In this document: positions 19,593 to 57,757 of the stretch, one piece after another | Numbering within the stretch: the stretch's first letter is position 1 | Layout of the letters: each line of letters opens with the position of its first letter | Source: Escherichia coli O157 typing phage 14 | Reading direction: 5' to 3' (one strand) | Sequence record: KP869112 | Length of the DNA stretch: 64,000 bases | Position numbers and translations under genes: made by a program | Notes under the pieces: generated by a model | Seen by the model: only the letters and a program-made list of their open reading frames with translations | Database searches by the model: none | What the model was told of the DNA's origin: nothing

Positions 19593-19620
19593 GGACGCTC
19601 TGTGGCGTCCTTTTCTTTAT
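19593..19620 (+). terminator. intrinsic terminator GGACGC-TCTGTG-GCGTCC + TTTTCTTTAT
   Basis: 6 bp stem and T-rich tail after 19268 gene. Confidence 0.65.
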
Positions 19621-19780
19621 CTGGTGCACGATTGCATACCTTTGACAGATAATCTCATTACAGAGCGTTTAAGAGCTTCCTACAAACAAATCTCTCTTTC
19701 GAGCGTAGCGAGAACGCACGTCCGTTTTGACCCAAATCACCATACGCTCGGATTTTAACCAAACCCTCGCGGCGTTTCTA

Positions 19781-19809
19781 TTGACACATTACCGCTCCAG
19801 TGATAATAT
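19781..19809 (+). promoter_or_regulatory. sigma70-like promoter (TTGACA, 17 nt, TAATAT)
   Basis: Upstream of small peptide gene at 19842. Confidence 0.5.
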
Positions 19810-19841
19810 CCACACATAGTTTGTAGAATATGGGGTACACT

Positions 19842-19931
19842 ATGAGAACATTGTCCGAAGTTTTGGTGGTGATCCTGATGATCATTACGTCCATAGCGGC
19901 TGTTGCCGGAATACTCACGGGTGGAACATGA
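19842..19931 (+). CDS. small hydrophobic peptide (29 aa)
   Basis: ATG 33 nt downstream of promoter -10; single TM helix; stop overlaps next ATG. Confidence 0.35.
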   Translation: MRTLSEVLVVILMIITSIAAVAGILTGGT

Positions 19932-20140
19932 TAAACACACATGCATCTGAAGAGACATCCAAAGGAGTGACTATATGTCCCTTGGCTGAGCCAGTGAAAG
20001 AGGAAAACTTCGATTCTGAAGATTCTCCATCTTCGCTCCAGGTAGATCCTGAGGCTGATGACCTAACGTGGGAAGACATCGTAGATATCTGGTTCTCTAT
20101 TATGCCTGAGCACGAAGAGTTCAGGGGTGGTAGACTATGA
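19928..20140 (+). CDS. small acidic protein
   Basis: ATGA overlap with upstream peptide gene. Confidence 0.4.
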   Translation: MINTHASEETSKGVTICPLAEPVKEENFDSEDSPSSLQVDPEADDLTWEDIVDIWFSIMPEHEEFRGGRL

Positions 20141-20261
20141 AGCACCGAGCCCACACAGGTTCCTCATGCTAAAGCATGGCCTGAAGAGGCAAACGTGCAT
20201 AATTCCTGTACATTGGGACGTATAAAACCCTGTTCACATTCTCATTTCCAGAGGAGATTTC

Positions 20262-20477
20262 ATGAAGATAGAAATATTTGGTGGAGCTGACAATACTCGT
20301 GGCCTGATTTACCTTGAATTCGATGAATCATACCTGCCAGAGGTGTTAAATATGGACTCTGTTGCTGATGCTTTGGGAGTAAGTCCTAAAGATCTCTACT
20401 CTGGTGCTGAGATTGATGGTTGGGAGGAGACCATGAACATTGATTTCAGTGAAGTAGGTGATGAACCACTGGACTGA
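20262..20477 (+). CDS. small acidic protein, MKIEI paralog family
   Basis: RBS GAGGAGA; MKIEIFGG N-terminus. Confidence 0.5.
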   Translation: MKIEIFGGADNTRGLIYLEFDESYLPEVLNMDSVADALGVSPKDLYSGAEIDGWEETMNIDFSEVGDEPLD

Positions 20478-22085
20478 CACACAATTAGCTACCCGGCTAA
20501 AGTGCTGGGAGCACCTATAACACATCTTTCAACTAAATTTCCTACCACCACAATCACTTACCTCCCACACATGACTGTTTGCTTGTTTAGTGAGCAGTCA
20601 TGCCTTGACATTCTTGCCTATCCTGATAAAATTAAGTTCTTCTCTTTTCTTTTACCGAGTAATTCGGGTTTTCTGTTCTCTTCGGTTTGAAGGGGTATGG
20701 AGATACACCTGAGTGAACAGGGTGAACAACCGAACCATTGGCTATGGCATTAGCATGGCGAAGCGGACGGGTGACGAAAGAGGGGCCGGAGGACACCAGT
20801 CACTGCCATATGATATATAGGTGATAACCTGAAGAGTCTGAATAAGTGTTTAAGTACCAGTCAGAGGAAAAGGTGAATGGTAGCCGAAGGGGGAGGGGGG
20901 TTTCTTGTATCTTTAATTTGTATATTATGTATACACTTGTAAACCAACACCATCTGAATTTGCTTACCACACAAAGCGGATAGAGACAAATATTACCTAT
21001 TAAACTTGAATTATTTATAGAAAATACCACAACACCACTTAAGTCTTTGATTTTACACATAAATCCTACAGATATTCACCCTCCATATTTAACATACTTG
21101 TAACATATCTATACCCAACCTGTCTGATCAACTCACCCAACTACATCCTCCATATTTCCCCTGTCTGTACTACCCCTGCCCAGCCGGGAGTCCCGTCATA
21201 TCTGGCTTTCCAGCAAATATCACACCCACAAATATCATTGCCTGAAGAGGGTTTCATCCCATAATACATGCCTTACCTGAAGAGCGCTTCATACACCACG
21301 TAAATTTTTTAATTGACCTGCAATTTTCCCGTCATGACCCCCTGCCCCGCCAGAGAGGTTGACTTTTCCCACACAGACCTGAAGAGCCAGCCAGAAATAT
21401 CTGAACAGGTCCAGTTATACCACGATTTTGACCTGACCGACAGGAGTGCCTCCCTGTCAGGAGCCGGTAGCGACTGGAGTGCTGCCAGGCGGACGAAATG
21501 GGAATACTTCTCATTCTTATAATAATTCTCAAATATCGAGGCAGTGAGGCAAATTAATAGGTGAGGCCGTTCACACAGTGGCACAACATTTGCAACCTAT
21601 CTTGTGGGGTGAATGAGAATACCTATCATTGTGAGAATAGTTATCATTACGGGCAATTTAACATAATACCCATTATGCGCACCACTGGCGATACATACAG
21701 GGGTTGATAACATGAGTTACTGTTTACGCACATAACAATTATATTTCTTACTATTTGTGTGGGATATAGTTAGCAGCCGATAGATTAGATATTGACCTGT
21801 AGACTTCCAACCGTCTAGACGTCTAAACGCCCACACAACAAGGCTTATACATACATCACTGAATGTAAACAGGACCGCAAAAATGCTACCATACAAGCTT
21901 GTAAATTTTTCATGCAGCACTTGACAAAGAGGAGGAAAACTTGTCTGACACACTGGGCACAACATAACATACTGCAGCACAATATGACACAATAACGACT
22001 GTTATTATTTCATGTTTCACTGTTCACGTATAGATTGTTCCCGCATAGACTGTTTACGCCTGGATAGTTCACGCATAGATGATAA

Positions 22086-22317
22086 GCCATGCCATTCGTT
22101 TGCATGACAATAATTAACTTGTTTACAATAGATGACATAATATAAAAGCAGGGCAACTATTAGAAGATCATAGTTGCCTTGCTTGTTATGTCATGATTAA
22201 CTAAATACAAGGCAACTATGATCTGATTAATAGATTGCAGACAAACTATCACGGGGGTGATTGTTACTGCTTTTATATTATGTCGCGACTCCGTCGCGCC
22301 ATGCCATTCGTTTGCAT
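22086..22317. repeat. repeat cluster: 20 bp direct repeat GCCATGCCATTCGTTTGCAT (x2), inverted repeat CATAATATAAAAGCAG/CTGCTTTTATATTATG, ATAGTTGCC motif x3
   Basis: Exact repeats read in sequence within the gene-free region. Confidence 0.6.
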
Positions 22318-22930
22318 AGTTGCCTTATTGTTACAGATAAAATAATTGTATTGTTAATTATTTCTTATCTTTCTATTAGTCATCTAATGATTTCAGTTAG
22401 TATAGTAACGTACAGTAAACATTAGACGACTAAAGATTTCTCTGCTTATAATAACCTAACGTGACAATTCCGGACTGTTTACGAAAAATGTTGACACCTG
22501 AGCTGATTTATGTTATGCAGTTTACACGAATAATTATTTTATGCAGGTATTGACTATTCTGTTATTCTATGGTTGGAATAAATACTTAGCAGGCTATAGA
22601 ATGGTGAGCGTACGTAAATTCTAAGATCTGGCGGCTATAGTTATGCCCGATTTTTCACGTAGAAAACGCTTTTATGAGTGTGTAAGTGTATGACTTATAA
22701 AGATTTTTAGTTGTTGACAAGATACTGAAGATGTGCATCAGGTTAAATTTTGTGCAATAGCGGCATTACGTGCAATTTTGGAAGGAAAAACGTGTAAAAA
22801 ATGGCGCTGCTACCACACAATGAAAGATTATGCAATAGCTATTTTACATGTATGTTTGTACAGTGGTGGTAATTGATGGCTTGTCGATTATTCCACTTGC
22901 CAGGCTGGGCCGTTTGTGGTAGGGGAAATA

Positions 22931-49343: not shown

Positions 49344-50668
49344 TTATTGATCAGAATTATCTTTCGTAATTAAGGTCTGGGTAAGTTTGTAATAGCGGAA
49401 GCCACCGCCACCTTGCCAGCTTGCAGACTTAGAAATACCACCTTGATCTTCACCATCAATCACTTTTTGCAAGCGAGGGATAATATGGGTATGACAATGA
49501 TCACCCAGTTCGATCAAGATCCAACGTCTTTTCATCTTGTGGGCTACAGCAGCAGTAGTTCCCGAACCGCCGAATGAATCCAATACCAAATCACCTTCTC
49601 GCGTACACATTTCGAGAATCCGCTTCAAAAGCGCTTCTGGTTTTTTCCATTTTTGAAACTAACGCCGCCTTCATTTGCTATTCCATTCCAACTAATGTCT
49701 GTCCAAACATCAGTTATTAGTTCCGCAGGTCGCATCTCACCGTCAATTTCCAAAAGCCTGTTGGAGTAAAAGACCATTTGCCTACCATTTGCGATATAAA
49801 ATCCTTCAACATCCTCATTCGGATGTACATAAACCTTATCCCTATCTTTCTTTGACTTCTCGATAGTTTCTTTTCTCTTTATTTTAGCGCCACCACCAAT
49901 TGCAACAGATTGAAATACACGTTCTGCATTATCAATTGCGAATTGTGCTAATTCATCATCGAATGTGTCAGGCAGTTTTTTCTTAGCTTCTTTTGCATCT
50001 TTATAGCCATTGGCCTTTGCAAACGCATCGGCAATACCGCACCACGTCCAATTTTTATAATGGTCATCCGGGTTTAATAGGTATTTGTTATATCCTGTAT
50101 CATACCCTTTAGGTATATAGATTTTGTTAAGCGGTTTCTGGGTGCGATCTTTTGCATATACAAGCAAAAAGTTTGCTGTGGAGAAAACTGTGGCTCCTGT
50201 TGCCTTAAATCCCGAAGGGAAATTTGTGGTCATCGATATGGTATTTAACTGATTTGCACGACCAAAAATCTCGTCCATCAAAACTTTTAAATACGCCATT
50301 TCGCAATCATCTAAGTGAACGAATATTACCCCATCATCACTTAGAAGATTACGAATTATTTCTAACCTATCCCTCATTAAGCCCAGCCAAACGGAATGCT
50401 CCAGGCTATCATCGTAGTGCTCAAAAGCCCTCCCGGTATTGAATGGTGGGTCTATGTAAACACACTTCACTTTGCCTGCATACTCTTGCTCTAGCGCCTT
50501 CAATGCTAATAAGTTATCTCCAAAAATCAGTTTATTATCAAAAATATCGTTTTCGGTCACTTTCTGGCTGTGGTAAGACTTGCTAGAATCTTCTAACAAA
50601 ATGTGCTGCTCTAACTTTTTGCGCTCGTTTTTACCTATCCAGGTAAGTTCTAATTTGGTTTTACTCAT
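49344..50668 (-). pseudogene. beta-class DNA N6-adenine/N4-cytosine methyltransferase split by a frameshift
   Basis: Upstream ORF (49625-50668) carries DPPF (VYIDPPFNTG); downstream ORF (49344-49628) carries AdoMet motif FGGSGTT; reading frames overlap across 49628-49658 around a homopolymer (GGAAAAAACC on coding strand). Confidence 0.55.
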
Positions 50669-50726: not shown

Positions 50727-51071
50727 TTACTGCTCAAGGTCTTCAGAGTCAAGCTCAAAAAGAATCAAACTGTGCATGCCTGCAGAGAGATCAACACACC
50801 CTGCAACAATAAGGGTTTGATAGTAAGGTTCAGCACCCTCAATGTCTTCGTTAAAATCCACAACAAGGTAGTCACCTTTGTTAAAGGTGTATTTGTCCGA
50901 TGTAAACGCAAAACCTGCCCAGTCCCCTACTGCAGGATCTTTATCAGTCACCTTTGTTAGCAGTAGATCTTTTTCACGAGATCTTTTAGTAAAATCGTGA
51001 ATCACAACATCCTTCTCTTCAGGAGTTGGATTGCCGCACACGTAGTTAACGATATTTCTCCACAAACTCAT
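50727..51071 (-). CDS. hypothetical protein
   Basis: RBS AGAGGGGGA; start overlaps helicase stop. Confidence 0.45.
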   Translation of the reverse strand: MSLWRNIVNYVCGNPTPEEKDVVIHDFTKRSREKDLLLTKVTDKDPAVGDWAGFAFTSDKYTFNKGDYLVVDFNEDIEGAEPYYQTLIVAGCVDLSAGMHSLILFELDSEDLEQ

Positions 51072-52438
51072 ACGTCCCCCTCTTCTGCTCTGGTTTCAAA
51101 ATCTTTCCTGACAATTTTGTCTAAGTCAGGGAATGTTGTATTGTAAAACTCTACGACTCGCGGGTCAACAATAATGTCAACCTCTCTTAGTGGACGCAAC
51201 AAGTTTATTCCTTGTATTGTCTTAACTCTACTCAAAGCGACATACGTCATCCCAGGAGAGAAAGCTCCGTTCTTTCCAAGGTCTAGGTTGTAACAATCTA
51301 GTGTAAGTCCTTGACTTTTATGAGATGTTACGGCGTACCCAGATTTCAGAGGAAGTTGCTTGTATGACCCAATCACTACCCTCTCTATAAACTTCTCCAT
51401 CTTCCTTTCTGCAATGTTGTATCTCTGAGATGGCTTATACTCGTTATTCTCCCACAACCTCTGCTCTATGTCAACCTGTGTTCCATCTTCAAGCTCTACC
51501 ACCACCGCCTTGTTCTTAAATTTAACAATTGTAGCACGTGTTCCGTTAACATAATAAGGTACTTTGTGCGTCGGGTCAACATCGTTGGCGGTTATCATAA
51601 CTTTCATGCCAATTTTCAACTTCATCTCCTGCTCAACTGGCAGGGTGGAGGGAAACTTACCCTTCATTTCACCAGTGTATACCTTCTCTGGGGCGTTGAT
51701 GGCATCATAGAACCTTCTGTTCACTTCCTCTGCTTGTTTGTTGGTGGCGCAAATTGTGAGAGCGTCTGTTGGTACACCTCCTTTGTAACAGCGAGCATTA
51801 AGTTCTGCTACAACCTCTTTTATGCGACGACCCTCACGAACACAGTTGAGCATTGTAGCAAATCGAACAGACTCCTGTCGGAACTGATCTATTAGGGCTA
51901 TGTTGTGGAGGTCAAGCTCTTTCCAAGATTCGGTATAGCAACACAGGTCCGTATGGTAGAAGTTGAAGTAGGCTTCCTTCTCCATAGAAGAGACAACAGG
52001 AGGTGCCTGGTAAAAATCGCCAAACAATATGACCTGTATGCCTCCGAAAGGTTTGTCATTTTTTCGAAGGAAGCGGAGTTTCCTATCCATCTCTATAAAC
52101 TTATCAGCACGGATCATAGAGATTTCATCGATAATTAGGATGGTAAATGCCTTGCTTTTCAAAGGCTTTGCTGTTTTTGCCCTTATTGCGGTCCAGTCCG
52201 ACTCCATGCTCACACCTGCTGCAAGATCGAAGGTTCGGTGTGCTGTTGCTCCATTAACGTTTAAAGCGGCTACCCCTGTCGGGGCAACCGTTATGCAAGA
52301 GTCTCCATACATTGACTGGATCATGTTGATGAGGTACGTCTTCCCACAACCTGCGGGTCCTGAAACGAAGACATTCTCACCGCTCATGATTGCAACGAGG
52401 GCAGCATCTGTGCCTACATCATACTGCCCTTTTTCCAT
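51068..52438 (-). CDS. Dda/Pif1/RecD-like SF1 DNA helicase
   Basis: Walker A GPAGCGKT, Walker B LIIDEISMI, C-terminal SHKSQGLT motif; RBS GAGGAGG. Confidence 0.8.
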   Translation of the reverse strand: MEKGQYDVGTDAALVAIMSGENVFVSGPAGCGKTYLINMIQSMYGDSCITVAPTGVAALNVNGATAHRTFDLAAGVSMESDWTAIRAKTAKPLKSKAFTILIIDEISMIRADKFIEMDRKLRFLRKNDKPFGGIQVILFGDFYQAPPVVSSMEKEAYFNFYHTDLCCYTESWKELDLHNIALIDQFRQESVRFATMLNCVREGRRIKEVVAELNARCYKGGVPTDALTICATNKQAEEVNRRFYDAINAPEKVYTGEMKGKFPSTLPVEQEMKLKIGMKVMITANDVDPTHKVPYYVNGTRATIVKFKNKAVVVELEDGTQVDIEQRLWENNEYKPSQRYNIAERKMEKFIERVVIGSYKQLPLKSGYAVTSHKSQGLTLDCYNLDLGKNGAFSPGMTYVALSRVKTIQGINLLRPLREVDIIVDPRVVEFYNTTFPDLDKIVRKDFETRAEEGDV

Positions 52439-53643
52439 TACGCCTCCTCGTAAAGAATGTCGATAGTGTTACCGTCACGATCAACTACATATTCAATAGG
52501 GTCTCCATCTTTGCGTGCTTCCGGAGCTACCACAATCTCATAGCGGCATGCACGGCACTTAGCGCTATTGTGTTGGTATGGCACACTAACCACATCTGCA
52601 GGATCAACCATAACAGTCATTACAGTGCCGTAGCTCTTTGCATACTCTTTGCTGGCGCAGTGTAAGCCATAGGAGCACGCAGCTTCCGGATCATCCTCTA
52701 CAAAGTTACGAGGCATGGATACAAAAGCACCCTGGTATTGTGGAACTTTACCACTGTGCCAATCCACCCACTTGCTGCCGTTAAACTGAACCCCTTTGTA
52801 GCAAATTATTCGACCATCTTCTGCAATCTGGATATCGTTGGCCTGCATAAAATCGTAGAGCATGTTTACAGATTTTGCAGAAGGATTGCGTAGCAGGCGA
52901 ACGAGGAATTTCACATAGCGGTCATCCAGCGTTCCGTCTGCATAATCTTTCTCAATTTTCTTTGCAATGGTGGATCGCATCTCTACACCGTAGTAGTAGA
53001 GCTTACCATCTTTCATGATCAGGTTGTCTGCAAGTGTGGTGAACTCATTCTTGCGTTCCAGCCAGACAAGGATTTCACCAATTGCCTCATCATATTCCTG
53101 AACAGAGATATGGTCGAAGACTTTCTGGTAAACTTCCTCACTTTCGCTGCGGCGAATTTCAAAAATGCCTTCGTTGCAGGTGATCTGGAGGAGTTCCCCA
53201 CAAATAACTACCAAAGGCTCGATGCTTCGAGTCTGTTGCTGAGACACACTGCTCACCACCTCCAGCACCGGATCTTTGACTTCTACTAAAGGTTCTTCTG
53301 ACTTGATTGCTACCCCAGTGAACCCCACACCGTGAACAACACACAGTGGGTATACCACGCCCCAACGTTTAACGGAACCTTCGCCTAAATCTAAGATCAT
53401 AGCGTACTTACCGTTATCTTCCAGACCGTATCGAAATAAACGGGCCTCTTCGCGGGTTTCAAAATCCTCACGGGTGTAGCAGACGCTGTCACGGTCAGGA
53501 TCGAACAACTCTGGGGCACCAACTGCCAGTGTCCAGGTTGTGTCGCCTTTCTCAATGGCACATGTGAAACCCTTCTTCTCAAGTTCTGCACGGCGGTCTC
53601 GTGCTTCTTTACGGGTTTTGAAATGTTCGTAGATGAAAATCAT
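52438..53643 (-). CDS. rIIB: rIIB-like protein
   Basis: Immediately downstream of rIIA-like gene; C-terminal blocks LYDFMQANDIQIAEDG, CSYGLHCASKEY, VDPADVVSVPYQHNSAKCRACRYEIV match the remembered T4 rIIB C-terminus. Confidence 0.65.
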   Translation of the reverse strand: MIFIYEHFKTRKEARDRRAELEKKGFTCAIEKGDTTWTLAVGAPELFDPDRDSVCYTREDFETREEARLFRYGLEDNGKYAMILDLGEGSVKRWGVVYPLCVVHGVGFTGVAIKSEEPLVEVKDPVLEVVSSVSQQQTRSIEPLVVICGELLQITCNEGIFEIRRSESEEVYQKVFDHISVQEYDEAIGEILVWLERKNEFTTLADNLIMKDGKLYYYGVEMRSTIAKKIEKDYADGTLDDRYVKFLVRLLRNPSAKSVNMLYDFMQANDIQIAEDGRIICYKGVQFNGSKWVDWHSGKVPQYQGAFVSMPRNFVEDDPEAACSYGLHCASKEYAKSYGTVMTVMVDPADVVSVPYQHNSAKCRACRYEIVVAPEARKDGDPIEYVVDRDGNTIDILYEEA

Positions 53644-53653
53644 CTTGGTCTCC

Positions 53654-55636
53654 TTATTTGATGTTATTCTTTGTATCGATCAGTTCACGGTATTCAATCA
53701 TAGCAGGAGTGTCCCAATATTTCAAGCCCACATGCTTCAAAAGTGGATATTTCTTTTCCAATCTTGCAATATAGGCCTTCCCGCACTTAACCCGGTTGGC
53801 GATTAAGATTTTGGCACGATGATTTAGCTCACTGTGCTTCCACGCGGTGTTACCTTCCCACTTGTGGAAATGTGGCCGATAATTTCCAAAATCCTGCATG
53901 GGGATAATTTTCCCTAATTGTCTATACAGGCTGTCATATGAAGTTTCATTTGCTGCGCGAGTCAGTAAGAATTTCCAAGCATCCTCTTTCAACAAATGTT
54001 CCACATTCTTCTCTGTAACATACTGGCAATCAGGATCAGTCCAAAGCAGACGAGATTCTGATACCAGGTACAGATCTTCACCTTCAGGAATCTGGAGTGC
54101 AGCACGCACACGGTCATAATTTTGCTGGTAGATGTTACTCATCTGGCCCAGCCAGCAGCTTCCCCGTTGGATATCCCCCTCATAAGGGATGCAATGCTTA
54201 ATCTTCTTGAACTCTGCCTTCGTGAGGCGCTCACGATGGAAGTAGCCATCCTCTCTAAGCTTCTTAACCCAGTAGCCTGGCTCGTAACGAGTTTTGGTTT
54301 CACCTTTCTTCGCAGGTCGGCGTGGAAGCTCCGATAACAATTTGACCGTATCTGCAAAGAACGGATGGTGTGCCGCCTCTTTAAACTCTTTCACCAGATC
54401 CTTGTTCCGGCAATAGAAAACGTTGCGTCCGGTGATCTCGCTTAAGTAGTTACACTTATTCCGGTTATATTTGCCGTCTCCGTCGTTAAATACAAGGTAT
54501 ACACCTCGTAAGAACTCCGACTTTCCGTAACGAGCATAGCCTATGCGGCCTTTATTTAAGCCGCCAGCGAAAATTTCACAATCGCCTAAGTCGCCAAGCC
54601 CTGTTTCTTCCCAACGGTTCCACATAAAGTTTTTGCCGAAGATGTGTCCGAACACTCCACTGTTCTTCATCATCTCACGTGCTTCTGAGGATGTTTTTGC
54701 TGTCTCCAATTCCGCAACAACTTCTGCCCCACGAAGACGTATACCTTCTTTGACAAAGGCCTCCAGGCGATCCTGGAATCCACCATCGTCGTGCCCCTCT
54801 ATGGTCCATTCGCGCCCAGGGTTAATATTGCAATCCCCGATAGGGATCTCTACACAGATTGCAGGGTAGTCTGTCAATGTTTCCAGAAACTTAGAGCGGT
54901 AAGGTTGGTGTCCCATCACCACACGGCTCTCATCAGAGCTGGTATAACCTTTCAGGATGGTCATTTTCCAACCATCTTTCTCGTAGTGATACTGCGCCTC
55001 AACCTTGTCACCTTCCAGCATCTTACTGGTCATAGGGTCGGTAACGGTAAACGGAAACTTTGCATAGCGTAGGCATGACGCAATAGCAGTGCGATATTTC
55101 AGAACATGCTCTTTCTTAACATGGAACTGAACTTTTACCCCGTTGTGCTCTTCAGTCTTCCGCTCGCGGATCTTGGTAACGTTTGGGATACCCTGATCCA
55201 AGAACAACAGATATGTGCTTTCAACACCGTTGTGCACACTGATCACATCGAAAGTGTCCACCATGCTGAACGGGGCCTTTGAACCTACACCTTTATTACC
55301 TACCAGAGCGTTGCTGTTGCGCTTGGTTGACTCCCCGAGGTTCATGAAAGTGTTGCGGACCATCTCTTCCGACATGCCCAATCCAACGTCCTGCACAAAG
55401 AAGTATGGTTCAAGGTCTGTAGGAGAGTGAATGATGATCGGTACATCACCCCGTCCAGACTCAACATGGGAGTCCACAGCATTGAAGATTGGTTCACGGC
55501 AGCTTGCCAGCACCTTATCTTCGTAAATCCCTTTAATGATTAGCCCAAAAGTCTCTTTGTTCAGAGAAATTGAGCCCCTGGTGACCTCCATATTTCCGGT
55601 TAGTACTGCTTTAGTTTCATTACTGTTTACAATCAT
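53654..55636 (-). CDS. rIIA: rIIA-like protein (N-terminal GHKL-type ATPase fold)
   Basis: Bergerat-fold motifs EPIFNAVDSH, VQDVGLGMS, GNKGVGSKAPFSMVDTF matching remembered T4 rIIA motifs; 660 aa. Confidence 0.7.
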   Translation of the reverse strand: MIVNSNETKAVLTGNMEVTRGSISLNKETFGLIIKGIYEDKVLASCREPIFNAVDSHVESGRGDVPIIIHSPTDLEPYFFVQDVGLGMSEEMVRNTFMNLGESTKRNSNALVGNKGVGSKAPFSMVDTFDVISVHNGVESTYLLFLDQGIPNVTKIRERKTEEHNGVKVQFHVKKEHVLKYRTAIASCLRYAKFPFTVTDPMTSKMLEGDKVEAQYHYEKDGWKMTILKGYTSSDESRVVMGHQPYRSKFLETLTDYPAICVEIPIGDCNINPGREWTIEGHDDGGFQDRLEAFVKEGIRLRGAEVVAELETAKTSSEAREMMKNSGVFGHIFGKNFMWNRWEETGLGDLGDCEIFAGGLNKGRIGYARYGKSEFLRGVYLVFNDGDGKYNRNKCNYLSEITGRNVFYCRNKDLVKEFKEAAHHPFFADTVKLLSELPRRPAKKGETKTRYEPGYWVKKLREDGYFHRERLTKAEFKKIKHCIPYEGDIQRGSCWLGQMSNIYQQNYDRVRAALQIPEGEDLYLVSESRLLWTDPDCQYVTEKNVEHLLKEDAWKFLLTRAANETSYDSLYRQLGKIIPMQDFGNYRPHFHKWEGNTAWKHSELNHRAKILIANRVKCGKAYIARLEKKYPLLKHVGLKYWDTPAMIEYRELIDTKNNIK

Positions 55637-56133
55637 TTATTGCGCTCCTTGTAGTAGATATGACTCCCGAATTGAGCTGTCCTCTGCATCTTTTTTGCCC
55701 ATTTCGGTCGTACTTTGGTTGTATGGTAGTGTGTTGCTCCACCTGTTATGTCCATAGCCATGTATGCAACATGGTTGTTATTATAGACCTTTAGAAGCAT
55801 CTTTGCAAGACTTTTAGCGTGATCCCATGAATCTTTTTCTGTCACCTTAAAAGTTTTGCCGTGGTTTGTCCACGAAAACTGGTTAGGTTGGTAGACAATC
55901 TTTCTTATAGTGTCTGGGTATTTGGGGTGAGATTTCCTGTTTAGTGTGGCAAACCCTGATGCCAGCATACCCATCGTGCCATCCCCTCTAGCCTCCCTGT
56001 AGATATTGCATGCCAGAATGTTTTCCTTAGTAGCTGAGGGCTTGCAAGTATGATATACTTTTTGTTTTGGTGCTGCAACAACAGGCAGCGATAAAAATGC
56101 GCTCAAAATAATAGCAAAGATCTTAATTTTCAC
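55633..56133 (-). CDS. secreted cell-wall hydrolase, SleB/Hydrolase_2-like
   Basis: GTG start with GGAG RBS; signal-peptide-like MKIKIFAIILSAFLSLPVVAAP; NIYREARGDG...ATLNR...IVYQPNQFS pattern typical of SleB-family hydrolases. Confidence 0.55.
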   Translation of the reverse strand: MKIKIFAIILSAFLSLPVVAAPKQKVYHTCKPSATKENILACNIYREARGDGTMGMLASGFATLNRKSHPKYPDTIRKIVYQPNQFSWTNHGKTFKVTEKDSWDHAKSLAKMLLKVYNNNHVAYMAMDITGGATHYHTTKVRPKWAKKMQRTAQFGSHIYYKERNK

Positions 56134-56142
56134 AATAACTCC

Positions 56143-56169
56143 AAATAGAAAATCCCCGCCGAAGCGGGG
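56143..56169 (-). terminator. intrinsic terminator (CCCCGC-TTCG-GCGGGG + AUUUUCUAUUU on minus strand)
   Basis: Hairpin and U tract 3' of the 56183 gene. Confidence 0.6.
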
Positions 56170-56572: not shown

Positions 56573-57757
56573 TTAAGCTTTAGCCAAAATGGCGCTAAAC
56601 TCTTCACCAAACTCTTTTACAATCTTCATCAGGTTTGGGTATGCTTTGATCAGCTGAGCAACGATCTTGTCACGACCTTTACCGATAAGCAAGGCATTTC
56701 CTAAGGCATTAGGTTTCATCATCGCCATAAAGACTGAAAATACAAAATCTCGGTTCTCGTCCTTGAAGTTTTCCCAAAGGAAATCGAGAAAGTTTGCCAC
56801 ACAGCTAACAAGATCTTCGTCGGAGATACTTGCATTTTCCATCATATTACGAATAGCGATGCAACCTTCAGATCCAAGAATCCACAAGATGTCTGGCTGT
56901 TTAGGACCTACGTATTCTTTGCAACCTCCTGCCATAATCCGACCGATTTCCGGTAAGTTGCGTTTCTTGGTGTGGTAAGTCCAGATCTCTACCGCTGCAG
57001 TGTGACCAATAGCACCTTGCAGAAGAACACGGGCCATAGCGTCAGAAATAATACCGCTGTCAAAATCGTGCAAGATATCAGATGCAGCAACCCAAGATCG
57101 CGGTGTGGCAAAAGATGGACAATTAATCTCAGCCATGGCCTCATAATTATCGATAGCTGATGGAACTCTTTTCAGATATCCAATTACAGAGGAGTGCACC
57201 CCATTAAGGAATGCGTAGTCCTCAATAAACACCTCTGCATTGCTTGTAACCTCTACAATGATAAAACGGTTAGCCAGAGGGGCTTCGAGCGCCGAAAGAA
57301 CCGCACCATCTGTAGAACGGTTACCAGCAGCCACAAAAACAGAACCCTTAGGGAATGCATAGGTACCGCACTTGTGGTCAAGCATAATTTGCATTGCAAC
57401 CTTTTGCAGGTAGTTATCTGCATGAGTGAGCTCATCCAGAAAGATAATTCCGCTCCAGTCAGGATCCGCAGGCCAAAATTCTGGAATTGCAAACACTGTA
57501 CGTGTAGTTCCATCCGCTTCTACAGGGATAGGTAGCCCAGATAAGTCGGCAGGATCTTTATCTGACAGTCGCACGTCAACAAGGTTGTCATCTCGCTCAC
57601 CGAACATATTATCAGCGATCTGCTTCATCACCTGGCTTTTACCCACACCCATTGGTCCCAAAATTAGGACAGATCGGCTATGACGTTGGGCAAACTGAAT
57701 AATAGCTGGCAACTCACGGACAGTGATTTGACCACTTTCGAATACGTTTCTTGACAT
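56573..57757 (-). CDS. MoxR-like AAA+ ATPase
   Basis: Walker A GPMGVGKS, Walker B IIFLDELTHAD, single AAA module of ~390 aa; RBS GTAGAGGA. Confidence 0.7.
   Translation of the reverse strand: MSRNVFESGQITVRELPAIIQFAQRHSRSVLILGPMGVGKSQVMKQIADNMFGERDDNLVDVRLSDKDPADLSGLPIPVEADGTTRTVFAIPEFWPADPDWSGIIFLDELTHADNYLQKVAMQIMLDHKCGTYAFPKGSVFVAAGNRSTDGAVLSALEAPLANRFIIVEVTSNAEVFIEDYAFLNGVHSSVIGYLKRVPSAIDNYEAMAEINCPSFATPRSWVAASDILHDFDSGIISDAMARVLLQGAIGHTAAVEIWTYHTKKRNLPEIGRIMAGGCKEYVGPKQPDILWILGSEGCIAIRNMMENASISDEDLVSCVANFLDFLWENFKDENRDFVFSVFMAMMKPNALGNALLIGKGRDKIVAQLIKAYPNLMKIVKEFGEEFSAILAKA

Follow-up and report, generated by a model that had tools for sequence, protein, structure and literature searches.

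A predicted secreted SleB-type hydrolase beside an rIIA/rIIB pair in Escherichia coli O157 typing phage 14: probable accessory neighbours

Why does a phage carry a putative secreted cell wall hydrolase directly next to homologues of rIIA and rIIB? Escherichia coli O157 typing phage 14 (sequence record KP869112) raises this question in a stretch of 64,000 nucleotides (nt) that we refer to as the window. A sequence-only reading of the window had suggested that the hydrolase and the rII genes make up a lysis-related or superinfection-related envelope module, as in classical lysis-inhibition loci. We arrived at a different explanation, to which we assign a probability of about 70%: the phage exports an accessory muralytic enzyme of the SleB type through Sec, rIIAB is a counter-defence pair, both are part of a run of non-essential accessory genes, and their adjacency reflects synteny with probable co-expression. 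The locus consists of the following genes.

55633 to 56133, minus strand: hydrolase gene, an open reading frame (ORF) of 166 amino acids (aa) with a GTG start; SleB/CwlJ family (Hydrolase_2), predicted to be secreted
53654 to 55636, minus strand: rIIA homologue, a 660-aa ORF with an ATG start
52438 to 53643, minus strand: rIIB homologue, a 401-aa ORF
51068 to 52438, minus strand: Dda/PIF1-like helicase, a 456-aa ORF (Pfam PIF1, E 6.5e-33; PHROG 325, E 9e-112)

Transcription on the minus strand runs from the hydrolase through rIIA and rIIB to the helicase, and the first three ORFs are tightly packed. The TGA of the hydrolase and the ATG of rIIA overlap as ATGA (4 nt), a 10-nt spacer separates the rIIA stop from the rIIB start on the same strand to give an adjacent A-then-B pair, and rIIB and the helicase ORF share a single base, the last of the former and the first of the latter. 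The position of the hydrolase immediately upstream of rIIA in transcription order, which had been noted before, was confirmed by these coordinates. Because of the ATGA overlap, co-expression of the hydrolase and rIIA is suggested, and we regard co-expression of the hydrolase with the rII genes as probable.

In nucleotide sequence, the 3.7-kb stretch is 97-98% identical to naam, AlexBoehm and another 85 full-length Vequintavirus (rV5-like) records, and more than 100 GenBank Vequintavirus genomes carry the trio under the names cell wall hydrolase (SleB), rIIA and rIIB; the Bas56 hydrolase orthologue is annotated as a 'putative cell wall hydrolase'. Compared with the trios of rV5, Bas54 (bas54_0065/0066/0067) and Bas56 (bas56_0063/0064/0065), the proteins are 97-99% identical and the order, overlaps and neighbours are the same; nothing material differs, and the present stretch adds a further phage to the genus. 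Hydrolase, rIIA, rIIB and Dda-like helicase are the usual gene run of Vequintavirus at this locus, an arrangement that was already known and has been treated in the literature. The new details are the positional conservation, in three clades, of a hairpin 5′ of the hydrolase, described below, and the ATGA overlap between the hydrolase and rIIA. As a separate observation, 16 GenBank records titled 'Campylobacter phage' (host C. jejuni) show ~98% identity to the present E. coli Vequintavirus locus; these are probably mislabelled or contaminant assemblies.

Is the first gene product a cell wall hydrolase? Its match to Pfam PF07486 Hydrolase_2 scored 70.5 bits (gathering cutoff 27; E 2.1e-19) and took in positions 2-100 of the 100-position profile, and PHROG 938 ('endolysin') was matched with an E-value of 2e-27; these values, like the family E-values of rIIA and rIIB given below, are far beyond chance. 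An AlphaFold2 model of the protein, built on 10 sequences, had a mean predicted local distance difference test score (pLDDT) of 87.8. When this model was compared with the PDB by Foldseek, only two entries matched significantly, 4f55 and 4fet, both of them catalytic domains of SleB (E 4e-6 to 4e-5, prob 1.00, target TM-score (TMt) 0.74-0.78). The SleB-family assignment, which had been made from motifs, was thus borne out by the profile search, with the putative catalytic glutamate in place. The residues concerned are encoded as follows.

55993 to 55995, minus strand: codon of Glu47, the putative catalytic glutamate, in the motif YREARGD
56008 to 56046, minus strand: segment from the Cys30 to the Cys42 codon, a conserved pair of cysteines on either side of the point where the catalytic helix begins

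The YREARGD segment containing Glu47 aligns to YGESRGE of SleB, the Glu of which we take to be the SleB catalytic residue, and Glu47 is invariant in the alignment of homologues (A1). Both Cys30 and Cys42 are kept in the closer homologues; distant ones retain Cys42 and have the partner Cys placed elsewhere. A periplasmic disulfide between Cys30 and Cys42 is possible. The protein shares with Bacillus SleB (PDB 4F55, 4FET) the catalytic-domain fold and the Glu-containing motif but differs from it in having 20-24% identity and no N-terminal peptidoglycan-binding domain. Because of this missing domain and a score far under the cutoff of the SleB equivalog TIGR02869 (47.8 bits against 236.5, profile positions 83-201 only), we classify the protein as a member of the Hydrolase_2 family and not as an SleB orthologue. 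To our knowledge, muramic-delta-lactam is absent from the wall of the E. coli host, and the substrate specificity of the phage hydrolase must therefore differ from that of SleB. Family, fold and motif together point to a muralytic enzyme with an SleB-type fold in which Glu47 would be the likely catalytic acid.

The amino terminus of the hydrolase was examined for export signals, with the following result.

56074 to 56133, minus strand: predicted Sec type I signal peptide, residues 1-20 (MKIKIFAIILSAFLSLPVVA, then AP), from rule-based anatomy

The n-region MKIK (+2) precedes an uncharged stretch of residues 5-22 that holds the h-region and Pro17 and is composed of 56% LIVFM and 33% GAST, and there is one -3/-1 site only, VVA|AP after residue 20. 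The signal-peptide-like character of this terminus, noted previously, therefore stood up to the rules, and the presence of a cleavage-type c-region argues against a plain uncleaved anchor. The N-terminus does not look like a signal-anchor-release (SAR) anchor, as it is not Gly/Ala-rich and closes with a canonical -3/-1 site. Orthologues at 44-53% identity keep this three-part layout and have A-x-A-type ends (VLA|KD, ALA|KD, ANA|TN). The layout is also seen in the more distant Phapecoctavirus and T5-like hydrolase copies, and the GenBank record of phage PBES 02 has a sig_peptide annotated on its hydrolase homologue. For the homologue CB7_83, a signal peptide was reported together with an unpublished observation of toxicity on expression (PMC7344957). 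We infer that a Sec precursor of the hydrolase is translocated into the periplasm, where probable removal of the signal peptide behind Ala20 would give a basic mature protein (pI ~10) of ~146 aa.

Is the hydrolase the lysis enzyme of the phage? Holin and spanin genes, which the sequence-only reading had raised as a point to be checked, occur elsewhere in genomes of the genus: the i-spanin and o-spanin genes (bas56_0001 and bas56_0002) lie by the terminase, a 156-aa endolysin gene (bas56_0202) lies by the DNA ligase, and a 'putative holin' is annotated. From an rV5-like phage, the lysozyme-like endolysin of 156 aa has been purified and found active (PMC9728275). In the transposon-insertion data of the HIDEN-SEQ preprint for Bas54, the hydrolase orthologue bas54_0065 had insertions at 32 of 36 TA sites and was classified as Non-essential, as were rIIA (90 of 101 TA sites) and rIIB (56 of 59), whereas no insertions at all were recorded in the endolysin bas54_0202 or in either spanin; the 'putative holin' tolerated insertions (10.1101/2025.11.20.689424). 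By these published data, the hydrolase is not the muralytic enzyme required for lysis. No membrane ORF flanks it in the window, and it does not belong to a canonical holin-endolysin-spanin cassette. Because bas54_0065 is Non-essential and the endolysin has zero insertions, the hydrolase is accessory and cannot replace the endolysin. Main lysis would be left to the separate lysozyme-like endolysin and the spanin pair, encoded outside the window, and our best guess for the hydrolase is an auxiliary part in which it weakens or remodels the sacculus and so may aid lysis under some conditions.

These data bear on the reading in which the hydrolase is the true endolysin of a signal-peptide-type lysis system and rII is its inhibitor in a classical lysis-inhibition locus. 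The 'endolysin' label in RefSeq and PHROG, the predicted signal peptide and the listing of the CR3 homologue among host-lysis proteins (PMC7344957) speak for it, as does the tolerance of the Bas54 'putative holin' to insertions, which makes that gene doubtful as the holin. The non-essentiality of the hydrolase orthologue, set against the zero insertions in the other endolysin and the spanins, largely refutes this reading, and that other endolysin is biochemically active; furthermore, no holin or antiholin adjoins the hydrolase in the genus. In established T4 genetics, moreover, it is rI/rIII and the holin that govern lysis inhibition, with no direct dependence on rII. We consider such a role very improbable, and the label 'endolysin' on the hydrolase in RefSeq and PHROGs is misleading.

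Oenococcus phage fOg44 Lys44, P1 Lyz and phage 21 R, which are Sec-exported or SAR endolysins, resemble the hydrolase, if it is exported as predicted, in combining a muralytic enzyme with the Sec route and in needing no large-hole holin. They are the lysis endolysins of their phages, whereas the present hydrolase is dispensable and coexists with an essential cytoplasmic-type endolysin.

Muralytic enzymes are often found in phage virions, and the family is loosely annotated as 'cell wall hydrolase', so a virion-associated lysin that pierces the peptidoglycan at DNA entry has to be considered as well. The predicted cleavable Sec signal would route the protein away from the cytoplasm, the site of virion assembly, and the gene is non-essential and has replication and accessory genes around it, at a great distance from the block of structural genes. 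The tail module of the genus already includes a baseplate spike/tail lysozyme and a gp25-like hydrolase. We give a virion-associated role next to no credence.

Is the accessory hydrolase tied to its rII neighbours? A word-indexed homologue search gave 10 hydrolase relatives, and locus scanning was used in its place: IMG/VR was scanned for hydrolase relatives, 80 loci with 6-kb flanks were kept, and rII genes were detected in them by tblastn, phmmer and an rIIB hidden Markov model (HMM). Both rIIA and rIIB stood beside the hydrolase in 7 IMG/VR loci, or 8 of 80 including the Bas56 reference locus, and 72 of the 80 had no rII. The rII-positive loci belong to two clades, Vequintavirus and a Mydovirus-like clade (Mydovirus and related Klebsiella/Proteus phages), in the latter of which the hydrolase is ~52% and rIIA ~38% identical and a 51-aa membrane ORF lies between them. 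In Certrevirus (CR3-like) the order is hydrolase, an overlapping 62-65 aa ORF with two transmembrane (TM) segments, a 61-aa ORF and the helicase, with no rII; the absence of rII from this genus was reported earlier, and the small protein after the hydrolase was proposed as a class II holin (PMC7344957). In locus L013 the helicase follows directly 3′ of the hydrolase, and across the subfamily (L003-L013) a Dda-like helicase is the conserved downstream neighbour of the hydrolase. Because rII is absent from Certrevirus and L013 with hydrolase and helicase in place, these two genes form the conserved backbone, and rII is a lineage-specific occupant of the hydrolase-helicase junction.

The hydrolases of CB7_83 (Pectobacterium phage), CR3_087 (Cronobacter phage) and Proteus phage Mydo, 44-53% identical in the scanned loci, share with the present one the A-x-A-type signal-peptide end, the motifs H-x-C-K and C-N-x-Y-x-E, the hairpin 5′ of the gene and the Dda-like helicase downstream. 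The difference lies in the Certrevirus two-TM holin candidate and the Mydovirus-like 51-aa membrane ORF, both of which are absent from the present locus; a search of the Vequintavirus genome for homologues of these small membrane ORFs found none, and the two have no detectable relation to each other.

The two components also occur apart. Homologues of rIIA were found in 2642 phage records and relatives of the hydrolase in 1265, including Phapecoctavirus and T5-like Epseptimavirus. The rII loci of T4 and SUSP2 had no hydrolase nearby, and the T4 rII pair, unlike the present one, adjoins topoisomerase genes. Hydrolase_2 genes bearing a predicted Sec signal but with no adjacent rII are present in Epseptimavirus GreteKellenberger (L088, 2923-3372) and in a Phapecoctavirus (L087, 4983-5504). 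Large virulent enterobacterial phages thus seem to have repeatedly taken a secreted enzyme of the SleB type among their accessory genes. A predicted Sec-secreted hydrolase of this kind is kept by the Vequintavirinae, the Stephanstirmvirinae and the T5-like phages alike; a separate endolysin is shown here for Vequintavirinae, and T5-like phages presumably also have one beside their secreted SleB-type enzyme.

In a reading of functional coupling, the periplasmic hydrolase is harmless while the membrane is energised, in the manner of Sec-exported or SAR endolysins, rIIA and rIIB guard this energisation so that depolarisation set off by host defence does not trigger the hydrolase early, and the three genes are one module for timing and membrane integrity. 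The ATGA overlap and tight packing favour it, as does the retention of adjacency in Vequintavirus and the Mydovirus-like clade despite ~52% hydrolase and ~38% rIIA identity; relatives encode a small membrane protein 3′ of the hydrolase, like pinholin/secreted-endolysin pairs, and rII counters the depolarising RexAB system. Against it, Certrevirus retains the hydrolase with no rII (also PMC7344957), 72 of the 80 scanned hydrolase loci have no rII, T4 and SUSP2 have rII loci with no hydrolase, other phage families have secreted Hydrolase_2 with no adjacent rII, each of the three genes is dispensable in Bas54, and this enzyme family is not known to be gated by the proton motive force (PMF). We therefore regard coupling as quite unlikely. 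Still less likely is its most specific form, in which the hydrolase waits in the periplasm as a PMF-gated 'loaded spring' and translationally coupled rIIA and rIIB partly prevent early triggering by depolarisation; if true, it would tie the 70-year-old rII rapid-lysis phenotype to a periplasmic effector in a non-T4 phage.

The module proposed by the sequence-only reading accordingly divides into two parts. A lysis-related role of the hydrolase is plausible, since a small membrane protein follows it in Certrevirus and the Mydovirus-like clade. A functional hydrolase-rII unit for the envelope or for lysis inhibition is unsupported: the combination is confined to two clades among the 80 loci, Certrevirus does without rII and T4 and SUSP2 without the hydrolase, the Bas54 trio is non-essential with lysis proceeding via the other endolysin and the spanins, and 'lysis inhibitor' is a historical label, with rIIAB now treated as counter-defence against RexAB (PMC11879866). 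The adjacency would be a common position in a stretch of non-essential early or middle accessory genes, with no obligate functional unit.

What, then, are the rII proteins? The features on which their assignment rests are these.

55115 to 55555, minus strand: residues ~28-174 of rIIA, a GHKL (Bergerat) ATPase region that bears REPIFNAVD (N box), DVGLGM (G1) and GNKGVGSKAPF (G2)
52519 to 53250, minus strand: conserved core of rIIB, residues 132-375, the extent of the PHROG 609 match and of the most invariant columns of its homologue alignment (A2)
53344 to 53643, minus strand: N-terminal extension of rIIB, residues 1-100, two homologous beta-alpha-beta-beta repeats

The rIIA protein matched PHROG 612 essentially end to end (E 2.1e-124; residues 1-658 cover positions 1-724 of the 725 in the profile) and Pfam HATPase_c_3 (E 1.8e-8), and its alignment to the TRAP1/Hsp90 N-domain was weak (E 0.11) with the N box, G1 and G2 in register. 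The rIIB protein matched PHROG 609 with residues 132-375 (E 1.3e-61), and PF26926 is precomputed on all 120 listed rIIB relatives. The claim that an rIIA-like GHKL ATPase gene lies next to an rIIB-like gene was thus fully substantiated. In the PDB, a sequence search found no solved relatives, with weak Hsp90/TRAP1 GHKL matches only for rIIA and none for rIIB. Neither protein has a hydrophobic segment of TM strength (maximum 19-residue Kyte-Doolittle means of 0.83 for rIIA and 1.69 for rIIB), and the rIIB segment with the 1.69 value is not hydrophobic in relatives. With the T4 proteins, the pair shares the adjacent A-then-B order, the end-to-end PHROG 612 match of rIIA with its GHKL N-domain, and the conserved C-terminal core of rIIB; it differs in that T4-like rIIA matches have ~26-31% identity over part of the length and in that the present rIIB carries the 100-residue N-terminal double repeat beyond the PHROG 609 match.

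This double repeat, which is outside the PHROG 609-matched part, has the motif F-x-T/S-R-x-E/D-A-R ... W-x-V, with the secondary structure taken from AlphaFold2, and repeat 1 aligned to repeat 2 in hhalign with a probability of 94.9% (E 4.4e-8). The repeats gave weak SPOR/FXD-like signals (Pfam SPOR, E 0.0014, below cutoff; CwlC 1x60, E 0.53). The idea of a peptidoglycan-binding SPOR domain that links rIIB to the hydrolase was dropped because Foldseek of the rIIB model against the PDB gave no match below E 0.2. With the rIIB N-terminus as query, phmmer run exhaustively found only 4 proteins, 2 of them long and repetitive with uninformative Pfam matches.

Because rIIAB has recently been treated as counter-defence against RexAB (PMC11879866), we consider the rIIA GHKL ATPase and its partner rIIB, orthologues of the T4 pair, most likely to act here as a conditional counter-defence against RexAB-type, membrane-depolarising abortive infection. 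The labels 'endolysin' and 'lysis inhibitor' are both misleading at this locus because the hydrolase is accessory and the real lysis endolysin is encoded elsewhere.

Two genes upstream of the hydrolase lies a further accessory gene.

56573 to 57757, minus strand: MoxR-type ATPase, orthologue of bas54_0063

In Bas54, bas54_0063 was needed to overcome the predicted defence system DS-28, and the helicase orthologue bas54_0068 was strongly depleted on the clinical isolate CFE311 with a log2 fold change (log2FC) of -6.3 (10.1101/2025.11.20.689424). Both findings place the trio inside a counter-defence-rich accessory region. The hydrolase itself could be an envelope-directed competition or counter-defence factor, for example one that modifies the sacculus so as to shut out superinfecting phages or to get past an envelope barrier that matters only in certain hosts or growth states. 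Its position among these conditionally important genes would agree with this role, as would its being laboratory-dispensable yet conserved across the subfamily (PMC7344957) and the recurrence of similar secreted copies in unrelated large virulent coliphages. None of hydrolase, rIIA and rIIB was depleted on CFE311, however, and the hydrolase was not conditionally essential there (log2FC -0.88, p 0.50; 10.1101/2025.11.20.689424), which leaves the envelope factor an unlikely explanation.

Several points weigh against accessory neighbours that are joined by synteny. The non-essentiality was established on E. coli K-12 and one clinical isolate, so it does not reveal the natural role. The hydrolase gene is conserved in all Vequintavirinae genera (PMC7344957), and selection must consequently act on some function of it. 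The retained adjacency in two diverged clades, plus the 4-nt overlap, could reflect coupling. The signal peptide was judged by simple rules, and the divergent rII pairs shown to protect against RexAB are those of T4, MM02, EdH4, SUSP1 and N4, none of them from Vequintavirus (PMC11879866).

How might the accessory hydrolase be expressed? Two elements precede it.

56139 to 56142, minus strand: GGAG ribosome-binding site, 5 nt 5′ of the hydrolase GTG, read from the sequence
56154 to 56169, minus strand: strong terminator-like hairpin CCCCGC-TTCG-GCGGGG, then ATTTTCTATTT; a scan match with 6/6 GC pairs

The hairpin sits between an upstream 126-aa ORF and the ribosome-binding site of the hydrolase. 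The Mydovirus-like loci L007 and L009 and the Certrevirus loci L010-L012 have a hairpin with a T-run at this position too, but its sequence is different. Because this position is kept across Vequintavirus, the Mydovirus-like clade and Certrevirus, the conservation argues for a function, and it suggests that the hairpin could be a terminator or attenuator. Together with the GTG start, the hairpin suggests that the hydrolase level is probably held low and depends on read-through, which would suit a potentially toxic secreted enzyme. A sigma-70 promoter scan gave 23 sites against 16 +/- 4 expected, too near background to define promoters or transcription units.

Elsewhere in the window, Rfam and tRNA scans of all 64,000 nt gave no matches. 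An N6_N4 DNA methyltransferase gene (49344-50668, minus strand) is split into ORFs of 347 aa and 94 aa, with the break near 49636-49646. The break falls at an A-run (GGAAAAAACCAGAAGCG) just 5′ of the K-P-E-A-L-L motif; the stretch is 1 nt shorter than in phage V5 (1398 vs 1399 nt, 99.8% identity), and the Bas54 gene is intact at 1326 nt. The break could stem from a sequencing error in the homopolymer or from phase variation, or the gene could be a pseudogene. A further region of ~3 kb at ~19600-22900 is ORF-poor; plus- and minus-strand gene blocks converge there, the GC skew changes sign, and a cluster of direct and inverted ATAGTTGCCTTG-type copies lies within it at 22086-22333. The equivalent intergenic region of ~2 kb in Bas54 had no tolerated insertions (HIDEN-SEQ, 10.1101/2025.11.20.689424), and the region may serve as an origin or as some other cis element that is essential.

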